From IMG/VR virus record IMGVR_UViG_3300027672_000058, positions 1 to 28,815 of that record: a DNA stretch of 28,815 nucleotides, one strand, 5' to 3'. Shown in pieces: positions 20,395 to 25,125 of this stretch (the first letter of the stretch is position 1; each line of letters starts with the position of its first letter). Below the pieces are notes generated by a model, which saw only the letters and a program-made list of their open reading frames with translations, ran no database searches and had not been told where the DNA came from. This stretch comes from a virus. Lineage: Duplodnaviria > Caudoviricetes. The translations under genes and the position numbers were made by a program.

Positions 20395-21141
20395 TTGATA
20401 ATGAAGATTCTTATTTTAGATATTGAAACATCTCCGCATACAGGCTTTCATTGGGGACTATGGCAACAGAACATTAGTATAGGACAGTTGATAGAATGTT
20501 CCTCTGTTTTATGTTGGGCTGCTAAGTGGTTAGATGGTAAGAAAGTACACTTCTCTAGCATCTATGATACAACGCACACTAAAATGATAAAAGAAATACA
20601 TAAGCTGATAGACGAAGCTGATGCCATCATTACCTATAATGGTAAAAGATTTGATATGCCTACACTCAACAAAGAATTCCTTTTAGCAAACCTACCTCCT
20701 CCTAGTCCTTACAAAGACATAGACTTACTTAATACAGCAAGAGCAAAGTTTAGGTTCGCTAGTAATAAACTTGACTATATTGCTCAACTATTAGGTATAG
20801 GTATGAAGACCTCACATGAAGGTATGCCACTATGGATTGAGTGCATGGCTAAAAATCCTAAAGCATGGAAGCTAATGAAGAAGTATAATATTAATGATGT
20901 TAAATTAACAGAGAAAGTTTATAAGAAATTACAAGGTTGGATTCAAGTTCACCCTAACCATAACTTATTGACAAAAGAAATAGTTTGTCCTAATTGTGGT
21001 GGTCATCATCTACAGAAAAGGGGAACGCTATTAGCACTAACAAAAGTATGGCAAAGGTATTCGTGCCAGTCATGCGGAAAGTGGAGCAAAGGAAACAAGG
21101 CAATAGCAACAGTAAAATCAGAGTCGGCTTTACCCATATAA
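20395..21141 (+). CDS. RNase H-like / DnaQ-type 3'-5' exonuclease with C-terminal Zn ribbon (start probably 20401)
   Basis: LDIET, YNGKRFD and YNINDV DEDDy motifs; CPNC...CQSC. Confidence 0.82.
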   Translation: MIMKILILDIETSPHTGFHWGLWQQNISIGQLIECSSVLCWAAKWLDGKKVHFSSIYDTTHTKMIKEIHKLIDEADAIITYNGKRFDMPTLNKEFLLANLPPPSPYKDIDLLNTARAKFRFASNKLDYIAQLLGIGMKTSHEGMPLWIECMAKNPKAWKLMKKYNINDVKLTEKVYKKLQGWIQVHPNHNLLTKEIVCPNCGGHHLQKRGTLLALTKVWQRYSCQSCGKWSKGNKAIATVKSESALPI

Positions 21142-21152
21142 GGAAGATACAG

Positions 21153-21314
21153 ATGGACATTCATTTAATTGCAGAACATATGACAGACAAGATAATAGAA
21201 GATGTTGATATTGTGGATGGTGCTTCTGAAATGGTTATTACTCTATCGGATGGAAGTTCGGTGGAGATAGTAGTAGATAGTATCTATATGAATGTTCAAG
21301 ACCTAGATGACTAA
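21153..21314 (+). CDS. 53-aa acidic hypothetical protein (start corrected from 20994)
   Basis: AAGGA SD just after the exonuclease stop, then MDIHLIAEH...LDD*. Confidence 0.6.
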   Translation: MDIHLIAEHMTDKIIEDVDIVDGASEMVITLSDGSSVEIVVDSIYMNVQDLDD

Positions 21315-21740
21315 GTCTAATGTTCTGTAAGTTTTTCCGTCACTCCATTGTTTATCAATCTTTTCTTTGTATAAATTAATCACTTCATCATAACCTTTAA
21401 ATATAGGTCTGCTATTATTCTTAAAACAAAAAGCATAAATAAGGGGACATTTTTTACTGTGATAAACATCAGCGATTTGAGGCAGCATTTTTATTTCACT
21501 CTCTTTTATATTGGCTGTACCCTTTACATTACAAACAAATGTTTTATCTTTTGCATTAATAAAATAATCAGGCATGTTTCTTAATACTGGGTTTATATTA
21601 TAAAATAATGGAATAGAATTATTCTTCTCATCAAATCCTAGTCTAGCAATATAATAATCTTTACAGTAATTCTCAAAGAAATCTTCTGCGAAGTTGTTAC
21701 CTTTATTCCTATCAGCATAACTCATACTAGCATCAGGCAT
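21303..21740 (-). CDS. PD-(D/E)XK-like nuclease-fold protein
   Basis: AEDFF...MPDYF...VCNVKGT; Asn at the expected second acidic position. Confidence 0.5.
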   Translation of the reverse strand: MPDASMSYADRNKGNNFAEDFFENYCKDYYIARLGFDEKNNSIPLFYNINPVLRNMPDYFINAKDKTFVCNVKGTANIKESEIKMLPQIADVYHSKKCPLIYAFCFKNNSRPIFKGYDEVINLYKEKIDKQWSDGKTYRTLDLVI

Positions 21741-22059
21741 ATATCCTCCTACTTGCCATAGTCATAAGATTGTCCATTGCTAAATCTAAATTCACTTCAT
21801 AGTCTACAGGCTTATTACCCTTCAACCATCTATAATAAACAGCTTCTTTCTGTTCTTTGATTAAGCTATCTATACAAGCATTGATTATCTTAATGTTATT
21901 GTTATCACACTCCCCTATCATGTCTTCAAATACATCTGATGTAGACTCACCACCAGATGAAAAGTATGATGTCTTACTAGGATAGCCTAGCCTATGTGAA
22001 TCAGCTTTCATCCACCTAGACCAGTCCTCTAGCACATCCATTAATCTACCTATCCTCAC
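21733..22059 (-). CDS. Antiterminator Q-like protein
   Basis: VLEDWSRWM N-terminus and INACIDSL...AVYYRW resemble phage Q proteins. Confidence 0.55.
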   Translation of the reverse strand: MRIGRLMDVLEDWSRWMKADSHRLGYPSKTSYFSSGGESTSDVFEDMIGECDNNNIKIINACIDSLIKEQKEAVYYRWLKGNKPVDYEVNLDLAMDNLMTMASRRIYA

Positions 22060-22305
22060 TTACTTAACACTCCATGCAGTATTTCCCCAATTGCCTTTCT
22101 TTCTTACCTGTCTAGTTGTCATGGCTTTAGGTAACTTAAACTCTCCACTTGCTTCAAGCCTTAGTAGCACCCCCACTCCAACACCTACATAACCACTAAT
22201 CCTAGTCCTATTTGCTTCTGGATTTCTTGTTATAAAATCTTTTGCTCTTACAATAAAGTTCTGTTCTTCTTCATGCGTATAGTTGCTTCTTTGTTTTTCG
22301 TACAT
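22060..22305 (-). CDS. Hypothetical protein, possible HTH
   Basis: AAGGAG SD; NRTRISGYVGVGVGVLLRL HTH-like pattern. Confidence 0.6.
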   Translation of the reverse strand: MYEKQRSNYTHEEEQNFIVRAKDFITRNPEANRTRISGYVGVGVGVLLRLEASGEFKLPKAMTTRQVRKKGNWGNTAWSVK

Positions 22306-22898
22306 ATTAATCTCCTTATATTTAATATTTTATTTCCCACCTAATTTTATCACTTTTTGTTTGCATTTCATTTCTTTTTTCTCCGATATGCCATGCAACA
22401 GATTTACTTCTTTTTGTGTTACTCCACCCTGCGGCTTTATATATAGTTCCTTTATGATGGTCTACAGCCTGATAACTTAATAAGCCTAATATTTCTGGAA
22501 ACTTTCTATGTATTAATTTTCTCATAATACTTAACATTCTTGTAGCTGTATTTTTTGGAGCATCATTACTAATTGCAAGTCTTCTTAATTCTAGCCATAA
22601 TAATCCATCTTTAATTCGATTACTAGCAATCGGAGAAGTTAATATCGCACTTGCATAATATTTATTTTTATATGTAGCAGCATAAAAAACTTTATATCTA
22701 GTTCTAACAAGATTAGATTTATTCGTTTCTGGCAATACAGAGTGCCATAATTCATTTAACTCCATAGCTTTATCAACGCTTATTTCCCCTATTAAAAGTT
22801 GGAGCGGAGAGATTGGAATTGCACCATCACCTTCCTCTTGGAAAAGAGGATGTACTACTGTTGTACTATCTCCGCATTTATTAATATTAATCTCCTTA
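22304..22898. repeat. 15-nt direct repeat flanking the mom-like gene
   Basis: ATATTAATCTCCTTA at 22304-22318 and 22884-22898 (minus strand TAAGGAGATTAATAT, an SD-containing leader). Confidence 0.8.
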
Positions 22899-22909
22899 AC
22901 TAACATCAA
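22322..22909 (-). CDS. mom: Mom-like GNAT DNA adenine-modification enzyme (start uncertain; possibly ATT at 22885)
   Basis: LWHS, LELRRLAI...PKNTATRML, LLSYQ...HKGTIYKAAGW and final KIRW match Mu Mom-family motifs. Confidence 0.75.
   Translation of the reverse strand: MMLVKEININKCGDSTTVVHPLFQEEGDGAIPISPLQLLIGEISVDKAMELNELWHSVLPETNKSNLVRTRYKVFYAATYKNKYYASAILTSPIASNRIKDGLLWLELRRLAISNDAPKNTATRMLSIMRKLIHRKFPEILGLLSYQAVDHHKGTIYKAAGWSNTKRSKSVAWHIGEKRNEMQTKSDKIRWEIKY
22800..22875 (-). tRNA. Atypical tRNA-Gly-like element embedded in the mom-like CDS
   Basis: 76 nt: acceptor GCGGAGA/TCTCCGC, U73, CCA; D stem GTAC/GTAC; anticodon stem TCCTC/GAGGA with loop TTTTCCAA; T arm GATGG-TGCAATT-CC(A)ATC. Confidence 0.75.
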
Positions 22910-23219
22910 CGATTCTACTTACCCATTTGTTATCTTTCTTGTGCCAACCTTCTACTAAAAGAACCCAGTCTGCACTCCGCAGAGAGGGCGTAGAGGGACT
23001 ATCTGTTATTTTCTTTACCCTAGCACTAATGTTACTGTAACTCGTCACCTGAAGCCCTACAGTGTTGCCCTTACTATCTATTGCTAGTATGTCTATGATT
23101 CCAAATAAGTCCTGTCGTATTTTAGCAAATGCGTTCCATCTTTCTACAATAGTTACTAATGGATAATCTCCACTATCTCGCAGTCTTTTTAAAGTTCTTT
23201 GTGTTGGTGATATTGCCAT
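22896..23219 (-). CDS. PD-(D/E)XK endonuclease, Holliday-junction resolvase-like
   Basis: VERWN...QDLFGIIDILAI...GLQVTS motif. Confidence 0.65.
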   Translation of the reverse strand: MAISPTQRTLKRLRDSGDYPLVTIVERWNAFAKIRQDLFGIIDILAIDSKGNTVGLQVTSYSNISARVKKITDSPSTPSLRSADWVLLVEGWHKKDNKWVSRIVDVS

Positions 23220-23361
23220 CTTTATCCTTTAATGAGTTTAAGTGTCGCTCCTTTACATCTTCATCTTCCCATGCAACTTTTTTTTTGTTGTTAAAAATCC
23301 TATCATAATTATCAACAAACTTTTTGTCATCTGTTGGTCTGCGACTGCTTCCTTTACCCAT
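23173..23361 (-). CDS. Small hypothetical phage protein
   Basis: MGKGSSRRP...NYDRIF motif; GGAG SD. Confidence 0.65.
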   Translation of the reverse strand: MGKGSSRRPTDDKKFVDNYDRIFNNKKKVAWEDEDVKERHLNSLKDKDGNITNTKNFKKTAR

Positions 23362-23512
23362 TACTTATCTCCCTAACACAAGTATAAGTTTTCCAATCAA
23401 CATAGTGTACATTTGCATAAGTAAATGCTTCCTGACATGAGTTAAACGACCCAGCATAAACATTATCAGAAGGAAGTCCGTTTAAACTAATTAATAAAAT
23501 AAATTCAATCAT
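23354..23512 (-). CDS. 52-aa protein, paralog of the adjacent 93-aa ORF (not in ORF track)
   Basis: MIEFILLISLNGLPSDNVYAGSFNSCQEAFTYANVHYVDWKTYTCVREISNG*; AGGAG SD. Confidence 0.7.
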   Translation of the reverse strand: MIEFILLISLNGLPSDNVYAGSFNSCQEAFTYANVHYVDWKTYTCVREISNG

Positions 23513-23786
23513 TATCTTCTCCTATAAAAGTTCTTGTATCTACCCCAATAAATCCACAACTCTGCCCTTCTCTAATCGTATCAAAATCAAATTGACTTGG
23601 TGATACATGGTCAGGTGGTATATTGCTATATTCTTTTAGTAAGCAACTCGCTGCTTTATGCTCTGAACAATTCTCTTTAAAATAAATCATAGCAGTAGGA
23701 CAATCGTTAAAATAGCCTACAAATTCTAGGTCATCATAATTACCGCTTAAACTTACAGTTAATATAAATATCCCTTCCGCTAACAT
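23505..23786 (-). CDS. Hypothetical Cys-containing protein
   Basis: 93 aa, AGGAG SD, hydrophobic N-terminus. Confidence 0.68.
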   Translation of the reverse strand: MLAEGIFILTVSLSGNYDDLEFVGYFNDCPTAMIYFKENCSEHKAASCLLKEYSNIPPDHVSPSQFDFDTIREGQSCGFIGVDTRTFIGEDND

Positions 23787-23795
23787 AATTTACTC

Positions 23796-23954
23796 CTAAA
23801 AATTTCCTTTAGTAATAACCTTTCCTGTTGACTCATGAATAACATAAAATTCTTTTTCATTATAAGTCATTATGTATTTCCATCCTTCCCAAATCCATTG
23901 GTGTTCTTTCCATTCTTTTTTATTTTTCTTTAATATCTCTTTGCCTTTTGCCAT
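23796..23954 (-). CDS. 52-aa Trp/Lys-rich hypothetical protein (not in ORF track)
   Basis: MAKGKEILKKNKKEWKEHQWIWEGWKYIMTYNEKEFYVIHESTGKVITKGNF*; fills the gap in the operon. Confidence 0.6.
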   Translation of the reverse strand: MAKGKEILKKNKKEWKEHQWIWEGWKYIMTYNEKEFYVIHESTGKVITKGNF

Positions 23955-24090
23955 TTTTGCACACTCCACTCATATTGTATGTTCCTATTTCTGATATTAA
24001 ACTACACCACCATAACTTACCATCATGGTAGCATGCGTACTTGTTACACGCATGGCATAAGTGCTGCTTCCTTAAATCAATCTTCGTCAT
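23920..24090 (-). CDS. Small Cys-rich protein (start probably MTKIDL)
   Basis: CHACNKYAC...WWC...VC possible Zn finger. Confidence 0.55.
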   Translation of the reverse strand: MTKIDLRKQHLCHACNKYACYHDGKLWWCSLISEIGTYNMSGVCKNGKRQRDIKEK

Positions 24091-24385
24091 GAAGTTCGTC
24101 AAACTGTTTATCAATCATAATATCTTCTATGGTTGGCTTGTCTATCTTAAACCTACCTTTAGCTTCAGCATAAAATTGAGTCCATGTTTCATTAGCTTTA
24201 TCTAAATCTTGCTCCTGTATTACGGGGTCTTGATTCTTTTCCAGCCAGCGGAAACAGTATTTAACATGATTGCTCATATGGATGACTTCCATAGGAAATA
24301 GATTGTGAGTTAATACTCTAATAACCGTATAACACTCAATCCCGAATCTTACATACCATCTTGGTTTACATACTTCATCATTCAT
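24077..24385 (-). CDS. Hypothetical protein (start probably MNDEV)
   Basis: GGAG SD before the ATG at 24385. Confidence 0.55.
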   Translation of the reverse strand: MNDEVCKPRWYVRFGIECYTVIRVLTHNLFPMEVIHMSNHVKYCFRWLEKNQDPVIQEQDLDKANETWTQFYAEAKGRFKIDKPTIEDIMIDKQFDELHDED

Positions 24386-24602
24386 TTTTATCTCCATTAA
24401 TACAAACTTCATACTTTCTTTTTATAAAAACATTACTATCTGGACTGGCTGACTCAAACAATACACCCTTATCATTACATATATAATTAGAATGATTGGC
24501 GTTATAAGTAACATACAACCCCCACATCTTAAAACAAACTGCTATCGTTATTAAATAAATAACTAAATTCTTTGTAACAATACTTTGAATCCATTTAAGC
24601 AT
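24378..24602 (-). CDS. Hypothetical membrane-anchored protein
   Basis: AAGGAG SD; N-terminal TM segment; further Cys residues in the soluble part. Confidence 0.62.
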   Translation of the reverse strand: MLKWIQSIVTKNLVIYLITIAVCFKMWGLYVTYNANHSNYICNDKGVLFESASPDSNVFIKRKYEVCINGDKNE

Positions 24603-24694
24603 TTTACTTACTCCTTATTCATACATTTCTCTCTAATAATCAATGTACTTATTAAGTATAATAGAGTCTTGATTAACTATTAAAGGACTCTGCT

Positions 24695-24766
24695 ATGTGG
24701 ACAACACCTCAAGCTACTGAAATGCGTTTCGGTTTTGAAGTAACAATGTACATAATGAACAAGTAA
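24695..24766 (+). CDS. pqqA: Pyrroloquinoline quinone precursor peptide PqqA (not in ORF track)
   Basis: MWTTPQATEMRFGFEVTMYIMNK*: W-x-x-P N-terminus and RFGF-E-V-T-M-Y (ExxxY); AAAGGA SD at 24682-24687; TATAAT at 24657-24662. Confidence 0.93.
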   Translation: MWTTPQATEMRFGFEVTMYIMNK

Positions 24767-24780
24767 CTTCATAAAGGAAA

Positions 24781-24839
24781 GAGCCACCTATATTAATCAC
24801 AACATATAAGACCTTATAAGCATTAGTCTTTGGTGGCTC
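24781..24839. terminator. Stem-loop between convergent pqqA and ssb-like genes (possible terminator)
   Basis: GAGCCACC (24781-24788) / GGTGGCTC (24832-24839) plus inner AAGAC/GTCTT; TTTCCTTT follows on the minus strand. Confidence 0.45.
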
Positions 24840-24858
24840 ATTACTTTAACTTAATTGG

Positions 24859-25125
24859 CTAGAAAGGAACATCGTCTTTCATATCAGTTATAGTTTCAAC
24901 TGGTCCATTACTTTCTGTAGCACTAGCAGCACTAGCATCATAAGGCTCACTCATCTGACCACTCATGTATGAATTGCCGTTCTTGTCCTGTCTTAGCCAA
25001 GCACTCAATCTCTTTTCCTTATTGCCTTCAAGAGTGATTCTGCCTGTATAATCAGGTTGTGTTTCTTTAGTCTTATTGTTTTTAAACAATGCAAAGCTAT
25101 TAGTATTATCATATTCCTGTGCCAT
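24859..25125 (-). CDS. Single-stranded DNA-binding protein-like
   Basis: LFKNNK..QPDYTG...LSAW; acidic DDVPF C-terminal tail; next to the recombination genes. Confidence 0.7.
   Translation of the reverse strand: MAQEYDNTNSFALFKNNKTKETQPDYTGRITLEGNKEKRLSAWLRQDKNGNSYMSGQMSEPYDASAASATESNGPVETITDMKDDVPF

Follow-up and report, generated by a model that had tools for sequence, protein, structure and literature searches.

A 76-nt cloverleaf resembling tRNA-Gly lies within the reading frame of a Mom-family DNA-modification gene in the viral sequence studied here (the window, 28,815 nt), and related RNAs lie in or beside mom genes of other viruses and prokaryotes. We put the probability at roughly two in three that this RNA is cut from the mom mRNA, processed and charged by GlyRS, and that it avoids the ribosome to serve as a glycine donor for Mom.

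The cloverleaf in the window

The features of the locus are collected in Table 1. The cloverleaf reported by the first-pass annotation is present on the minus strand letter for letter, with the perfect acceptor stem, U73, CCA and anticodon described there: by inspection of the sequence, all seven acceptor pairs are Watson–Crick and UCC occupies positions 34–36. It is also translated in frame, as had been stated, and corresponds to nt 35–110 of the ORF 22909–22322, within its first 150 bp. The only Rfam match in the window was RF00005 (tRNA), which scored 34.2 bits (gathering cut-off 29; E = 0.001). The minimum free energy fold of the 76-nt element is the cloverleaf (z = −3.2), and none of 200 shuffled sequences was equally stable.

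A tRNA search at relaxed thresholds had been proposed as a check, and its outcome was divided. The Rfam model recovered the RNA above its cut-off, but ARAGORN did not call the window element at default settings and miscalled it as Trp at -ps90, with one other match in the same run. Across 222 copies of the element ARAGORN called 74, of which 21 were called as tRNA-Gly; the element is thus overlooked by annotation.

Table 1. Features of the mom locus, in window coordinates.
Feature	Position	Strand	Remarks
tRNA-Gly-like RNA, 76 nt	22800..22875	minus	codons 12–37 of mom, in frame; Rfam 34.2 bits, fold z = −3.2, covariation
Acceptor stem, 5′ strand	22869..22875	minus	G1, C2, G3 = glycine identity, paired with 22810–22804 (PMC9976931)
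D-arm	22852..22866	minus	4 pairs; 7-nt loop without GG
Anticodon arm	22833..22850	minus	6 pairs, 6-nt loop; UCC = 22842–22840
T-arm	22811..22828	minus	G49-C65, A50-U64, bulged A (22813), U51-A63; loop G55
Acceptor stem, 3′ strand	22800..22810	minus	discriminator U73 = 22803; encoded CCA = 22802–22800
Ribosome-binding-site string AAGGAGATTAAT, then in-frame ATT	22883..22897	minus	candidate AUU start lying 3 codons 5′ of the RNA
12-nt ribosome-binding string, second exact copy	22306..22317	minus	before the ATG of the next gene
Mom-family GNAT gene	22322..22909	minus	longest ORF, 195 aa from TTG; PF25680, phrog_1384, Foldseek
GNAT core, residues 38–195	22325..22798	minus	H56, R110 (Mu R111), T123 (Mu S124), A148 (Mu D149 column), Y157

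The RNA has several features of a canonical decoding tRNA-Gly, namely the cloverleaf itself, G1-C72, C2-G71, C35, C36, U73 and CCA. It lacks the regular 5-pair T-stem, an extra A (22813) bulging out of the 3′ strand between pairs 50–64 and 51–63, and the usual 7-nt anticodon loop, which is here a 6-nt loop on a 6-pair stem (8 nt with the inner pair open). Also absent are G18G19, U55, G49-U65 and G51-C63, in place of which the RNA has G55, G49-C65 and U51-A63. The first-pass annotation had singled out the loss of the D-loop GG and the presence of G55, which holds for the window copy but not family-wide: among 159 76-nt copies at the 5′ end of mom, GG is present in 87, U55 in 106, and GG and UUC together in 81. 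The mark that the family does share, and that was missed there, is the bulged T-stem with loss of G49-U65 and G51-C63.

The mom gene, its product and its neighbours

The assignment of the gene to the Mom family, made earlier from the sequence, is borne out by PF25680 (Mom), which the window ORF matched at 43.9 bits (cut-off 27.1), by phrog_1384 (E = 2.5e-14), and by Foldseek, in which Mu Mom (8bv8) took PDB ranks 1 and 2 (E = 4.2e-9, TM 0.65). The same entry was the only PDB sequence match of the Mom profile. None of 50,697 phage records covered 80% of the window protein, and the 31 weak matches were all to Paenibacillus phage. The AlphaFold model has a mean pLDDT of 86.8. Residues 1–30 form a block at pLDDT 49–57 and the first strand begins at residue 39, which suggests that the element ends where the GNAT fold begins, in agreement with the earlier reading.

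The glycine that Mu Mom attaches to adenine in double-stranded DNA, yielding 6-NcmdA, comes from Gly-tRNA-Gly, and the enzyme needs the terminal ribo-A of the tRNA (Silva et al. 2026, PMC13219725); this donor had been named correctly by the first-pass annotation. The window protein shares with Mu Mom the GNAT fold, the Pfam family and equivalents of R111 and S124. The former, R110, was found in 116/116 homologues, and position 123 is S or T (T in the window). Unlike Mu Mom, the window protein has Ala at the D149 column, where the 116 homologues have D in 66 cases and A in 41. D150 and an invariant H152 lie near the Mu D149/R151 sites, with no Arg there. The HTH-like helical insertion (175–209), which is required for the activity of Mu Mom (PMC13219725), is also absent; the model has a 19-residue coil instead, between strands 163–168 and 188–194. 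Because of the Ala and the short coil, the product of the window enzyme may differ from that of Mu.

The two exact copies of the 12-nt string flank the mom cassette on both sides. The true start of mom is probably later than the TTG of the longest ORF; an ATG at 22906, inside the upstream gene, is an alternative, and a homologue (L091) carries a GTG spaced almost like the window ATT. The portal proteins of the window phage and of Methylophilales phage Venkman share 80.6% identity; in Venkman the two neighbour genes adjoin each other with no mom cassette between them. Taken together, the sequences suggest an accessory mom cassette with an AUU start, which, if used, would hold the level of Mom low. 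A promoter and terminator scan of 21200–25000 returned 17 promoter-like sites against 18.1 expected, none of them usable. Three RNA-library runs contained minor portions of the region, in contigs that cover neither the RNA element nor the core of mom. Elsewhere in the window, a stand-alone DnaQ/RNase H-like exonuclease with a zinc ribbon is encoded after the lysis genes (20395–21141, plus strand).

Conservation and covariation of the RNA

The comparison started from 169 anchored loci, namely the window and 168 others retrieved by protein; 166 of them had enough flank and gave 125 distinct 76-nt stretches. The in-register set comprised 104 of these stretches, chosen by a GCG start and at least 6/7 acceptor pairs; the other 21 were 7 length variants and 14 stretches without a model match. 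UCC was found at positions 34–36 in all 104 copies, and all five T-stem pairs, which were not a selection criterion, were likewise formed in all 104. The bulged base was A in 103. The copies fall into two subtypes one nucleotide of register apart: subtype A (71/104), to which the window copy belongs, has a 7-nt D-loop and a 6-nt anticodon loop, and subtype B (33/104) has loops of 8 and 7 nt, respectively.

Cloverleaf conservation and covariation among homologues had been named beforehand as a check, and both were found. In 53 dereplicated subtype A copies, 97.9% of cells were paired, against 79.0% after shuffling and 38–50% when slid, and there were 214 two-sided changes against 47 after shuffling, with compensatory changes in all four stems; these pairing statistics ignore kinship among copies and, for the acceptor, D and anticodon stems, involve some circularity. 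The codons are constrained as well. Phe is encoded by TTC in 100/100 cases within the element, compared to 99/325 downstream, and the codon after Phe encodes Q, R, P, H or L, yet its first base is always C36. We considered the possibility that the cloverleaf is a by-product of protein conservation and rejected it, since synonymous choice is fixed and the peptide of the copies at the 3′ end of mom differs, being read in three frames. As judged from these comparisons, the cloverleaf is under selection at the RNA level and is not a product of chance.

In six loci (L009–L011, L016, L073 and L078), the RNA has decayed through synonymous changes while the encoded peptide is still present.

Occurrence and layouts around mom

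A DNA pattern that is blind to protein, made up of the bulged T-arm, acceptor strand and CCA, matched at least 119 viral loci (in 24 of 64 parts of the viral set) and 43 loci in 185,579 prokaryotic genomes, counts that include repeats of the same contig. A Mom match was present in the flank at 143/162 pattern loci, with the RNA at the 5′ end of mom in 120, at the 3′ end in 20, farther away in 2 and unlabelled in 1. The remaining 19 consisted of 11 without a cloverleaf, 4 with a cut or broken mom, 1 with a GNAT gene on the opposite strand and 3 with no mom nearby. A Pfam check found Mom in 53/54 ORFs, covering all 15 distinct 3′ cases and 39 diverged 5′ cases. In five whole genomes the best 7 covariance-model matches were all at mom genes; one of these (L497) was a copy not found before, in which the bulge is flanked by T-stem pairs with compensating changes.

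Core-only alignments were also used to scan loci, with a narrower alignment in place of the broad Mom alignment, which was too diverged for this purpose. In these scans, which were seeded from element-bearing proteins and are therefore not a census of the Mom family, the RNA was found at the 3′ end in 60/80 loci (62/80 if CCA was not demanded) and, in another Mom clade, at the 5′ end in 16/80, the other 64 being without it; here, too, a contig may be counted more than once. The bulged A was present in 58/60 of the 3′ matches and 16/16 of the 5′ matches. Scans of the opposite strands gave no matches when the bulged A was required and 9 in 1.15 Mb when any base was allowed.

Many 3′ copies are only 67–71 nt long, with the D-arm lost and the T-loop degenerate, but keep the acceptor pairs, U73, the CC loop and the bulge, and some 3′ copies without an encoded CCA retain U73. 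The D-armless copies of 67–71 nt (L333–L339, L344–L351 and others) stand just after PYPK codons and are candidate minimal GlyRS substrates. Free-standing copies were found upstream of mom in L183, L232, L294 and L299, the last hundreds of bases off, and downstream in L321, L327 and the cultured Salinibacter phage B2_17, where a bulged copy lies immediately 3′ of mom. In the Arthrobacter phages Shade, Sicarius2 and Sonny (L518, L519 and L520:1201–1274), a 74-nt unbulged tRNA-Gly-like RNA overlaps the end of mom, and in Microbacterium phage Appa (L521:1254–1328, minus strand) a tRNA-Gly(CCC) follows mom on the opposite strand. No such RNA was found in the regions fetched from phiEf11, HGTV-1, the Venkman stretch and Mu.

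Several loci deserve separate mention. The RNA of Shade, Sicarius2 and Sonny is unannotated, contains the mom stop codon, has no encoded CCA and, in Shade and Sonny, has A51-U63. A bulged copy at L172:558–631 (minus strand) follows and faces a GNAT gene (PF00583) that is not recognized as Mom. Those at L291:78–152, L297:1150–1226 and L302:1150–1226 have no mom within 1.2 kb, their neighbours including a ferritin-like gene, a PNPOx-like gene and a transposase. In L248:813–977 and L049:1510–1586 the mom frame is broken just after or inside an intact RNA, which may reflect pseudogenes, sequence errors or phase switches. At L012:650–761 an Rfam Betaproteobacteria-1 RNA (69.9 bits) lies about 750 nt upstream of the mom element.

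When 192 Mom cores were placed on a tree with FastTree, all main clades sampled included carriers of the RNA, and Mu grouped with four 3′ carriers. The distribution was patchy, with 26 label changes over the 192 rows of a tree that carries long-branch warnings, does not distinguish gain from loss and includes several "none" labels that are detector misses. Fourteen relatives without the RNA keep the ELRR and HxGTIY motifs. These relatives, together with the 64/80 loci of one clade that are without the RNA, show it to be dispensable for Mom, and we regard it as an optional booster and not as a requirement throughout the family. Its patchiness, and its decay in some lineages where the peptide persists, would be expected of a relic without a current role, either an integration-site tRNA copy or a selfish in-frame repeat. 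This we think very improbable, as it is largely refuted by the covariation and the compensatory changes in all four stems; moreover, the element is unlike the host tRNA-Gly of the same genomes and is not dispersed away from mom.

Overlap with the Mom reading frame

The Mom frame has no stop codon across the element in 104/104 in-register copies, while the other two frames are stopped in 97 and 86. An in-frame ATG occurs at most 8 codons upstream of the element in 78/104, compared to 12 and 22 in the other frames. Counted over each layout, 172/173 5′ copies (other frames, 13 and 26) and 67/69 3′ copies (31 and 21) leave the Mom frame open throughout the RNA, or 59/59 and 40/42, respectively, after dereplication. 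The 3′ copies show no conservation of the peptide; their CCA falls in any of the three frames (41, 21 and 5 copies), and the stop codon lies a median of 6 codons past it. An open Mom frame in both overlapping layouts implies that passage of ribosomes through the cloverleaf is maintained. Such selection would likewise be expected if the RNA acted in cis or if translation of the next gene were coupled to that of mom. A tRNA placed upstream of a shorter ORF was considered and rejected: 72/104 copies offer no in-frame ATG in the 40 codons that follow CCA, and the length of the 5′ element is 73, 76 or 79 nt in 146/147.

The first-pass annotation had left two options, a dedicated donor or a substrate mimic acting in cis, and the first fits better. 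If the RNA acted in cis only, Mom or GlyRS would bind the mimic in the mRNA and tune the translation or decay of a toxic enzyme. This would account for selection on the ORF overlap in both layouts and for the closeness of an ATG to so many 5′ copies, and it would suit an enzyme whose overexpression is lethal and which Mu keeps under tight control (PMC7261163). There is also a precedent for tRNA mimicry in autoregulation in the E. coli thrS operator, a tRNA-like structure in the mRNA of a tRNA-binding enzyme (PMC11088916). That operator, however, precedes the start codon and imitates anticodon loops alone, whereas the window RNA is a whole tRNA with CCA, downstream of the start, and its relatives vary in position inside or beside the ORF. 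An RNA that is found in frame at the 5′ end, in frame at the 3′ end or free beside mom favours action in trans, and neither the copies at the 3′ end, hundreds of bases upstream (L299) or free downstream nor the opposite-strand tRNA-Gly copies beside mom (Appa) or a GNAT gene (L172) are expected of a cis element. An internal CCA is not chargeable, yet CCA and U73 are retained. We therefore consider a purely cis-acting role improbable, and a donor acting in trans the better account of these layouts.

Glycine identity and the loss of EF-Tu features

Among 249 distinct copies at mom genes the anticodon is UCC in 193, ACC in 29, CCC in 20 and GCC in 2, and 5 have no CC hairpin. C35-C36 is thus retained in 244/249 while the wobble base is free. 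To our knowledge, tRNA-Gly(ACC) is close to absent in bacteria. The discriminator is U73 in 231 copies and A73 in 18; A73 occurs in 16/33 subtype B copies and in 0/71 of subtype A, and may track the type of host GlyRS. G1-C72, C2-G71 and G3-C70 are found in all 249, being fixed by the detector, and they were invariant where first seen. CCA is encoded in most copies. The first-pass annotation had pointed to glycine identity elements, which both match the published GlyRS set (G1-C72, C2-G71, C35, C36 and U73; PMC9976931) and are kept across the copies; on the sequence evidence, what is retained is the GlyRS identity set and not the decoding set.

The T-stem bulge is present in 247/249 copies, G49-U65 in 2/249 and G51-C63 in 6/249, while 9/9 host tRNA-Gly from five element-bearing genomes have both pairs and no bulge. 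Two copies of the Arthrobacter type and three viral ones (L387–L389) have no bulge, which counts against the donor reading. G49-U65 and G51-C63 are the EF-Tu elements that are lost in the staphylococcal non-proteinogenic tRNA-Gly (PMC12256121), and T-stem pairs set the affinity for EF-Tu (PMC3239215). With the energy table of the latter paper, which covers pairs alone and contains no bulge term, the T-stem pairs sum to +0.1 kcal/mol in 197/249 copies and +0.6 in the window, compared to −0.9 to −1.1 in the hosts. The idea that the bulge serves to fix the reading frame was rejected, as ordinary 74-nt phage tRNA-Gly is unbulged and the free-standing and 3′ copies keep the bulge.

RNase P prefers U before position 1. 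The base before G1 is U in 75/176 5′ copies and 5/71 3′ copies, so that U is not favoured, which we count against the donor reading. The RNA might still be a cleavage signal and nothing else, an RNase P or RNase E site that keeps down the amount of mom mRNA or divides the transcript of the operon, with the freed RNA as waste. The acceptor stem, T-arm and CCA are indeed the best-kept parts, also in D-armless copies, and cutting would destroy the ORF in both layouts. This explanation is a long shot, given that a cleavage site would not depend on C35-C36, U73 or the first three pairs, which almost every copy retains, and that free-standing copies exist.

A charged RNA might also have a use other than Mom, either as a decoy for toxins or nucleases that act on Gly-tRNA or as a spare tRNA for translation. 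TacT reads U73 and G71 of Gly-tRNA-Gly (PMC9976931), the anticodon loop of subtype B is of normal length, and the three loci with no mom within 1.2 kb would be understandable. Such a use is unlikely, however, for an RNA located almost exclusively at mom, and the ACC anticodons, 6-nt loops, D-arm loss and T-stem bulge speak against decoding.

Relation to known systems

An RNA of this kind has been described once in print, in the ssrA islands of Dehalococcoides, where a 76-bp tRNA-Gly-like "pseudo-tRNA" with anticodon "DCC" lies in a mom homologue in 16 island modules and one fosmid; no function was proposed in the available text (McMurdie et al. 2011, PMC3146451). The window locus is a further member of this element: both are 76 nt long, lie in the first 150 bp of a mom homologue, fold like tRNA-Gly and vary in the first anticodon base. 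Chloroflexota copies L290, L293 and L303 in our set have TCC, CCC and ACC. The likeness is drawn from the published description, in which the pseudo-tRNA loop is 5 nt, as opposed to 6 or 7 nt here, and the available text of that paper makes no mention of a T-stem bulge, of 3′ or free-standing layouts, or of phages.

Mu Mom, in contrast, uses host tRNAs and has no such RNA near its gene. Term searches for an embedded tRNA were negative in the searchable text of Silva et al. 2026 (PMC13219725) and in the main text of its 2023 preprint, and a literature search, mostly without subscription papers, returned none that ties the embedded element to the Mom donor.

A parallel is found in the staphylococcal NP1, NP2 and NEW tRNA-Gly (PMC12256121, PMC4574755, PMC3239215), which also keep glycine identity while G49-U65 and G51-C63 are lost; the additional loss of G18G19 and U55 seen in the NP type is matched by the window copy but is not general in the family. 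Their partners are the Fem transferases, which, like Mom, are tRNA-dependent transferases of GNAT fold. The staphylococcal RNAs, however, are ordinary genes in tRNA/rRNA operons with anticodon UCC, whereas the mom-linked RNA has a bulged T-stem and a free wobble base and usually lies inside the frame of its enzyme on mobile DNA.

A probable private glycine donor for Mom

In the mechanism we propose, host RNase P and 3′ trimming would release the RNA from the mom transcript, and host GlyRS would charge it with glycine. The bulged T-stem would weaken binding to EF-Tu and so keep the RNA off the ribosome, leaving the glycine to be taken by Mom as a private donor for modification of the phage DNA. 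Release would remove the start region of mom in the 5′ layout or its stop codon in the 3′ layout, and each transcript would therefore give either enzyme or donor, with ribosomes crossing the cloverleaf setting the split between the two. More speculatively, with the odds somewhat against it, mom may thus be a two-product gene, each transcript yielding the enzyme or its co-substrate, a ribosome-excluded carrier marked by the bulge and D-armless in some lineages, with ribosome traffic setting the ratio and restraining a toxic enzyme.

Against a donor role stand the many mom genes without the RNA, among them that of Mu in the region fetched, and the observation that each of the three tRNA-Gly isoacceptors of E. 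coli can serve Mu Mom (PMC13219725). The 6-nt anticodon loop or the lost D-arm may also hinder charging.

If the donor reading is correct, dedicated non-ribosomal tRNAs extend from staphylococcal cell-wall synthesis to viral DNA hypermodification, and the reading frame of an enzyme gene also contains the co-substrate of that enzyme. This reading connects a genomic oddity of 2011 with the Mom chemistry of 2023–2026, and can be tested by the published coupled GlyRS/Mom assay. The natural series of bulged, D-armless, ACC and A73 copies would serve as a map of the tRNA features read by GlyRS, EF-Tu and Mom, and the family may be a source of ribosome-orthogonal aminoacyl carriers.
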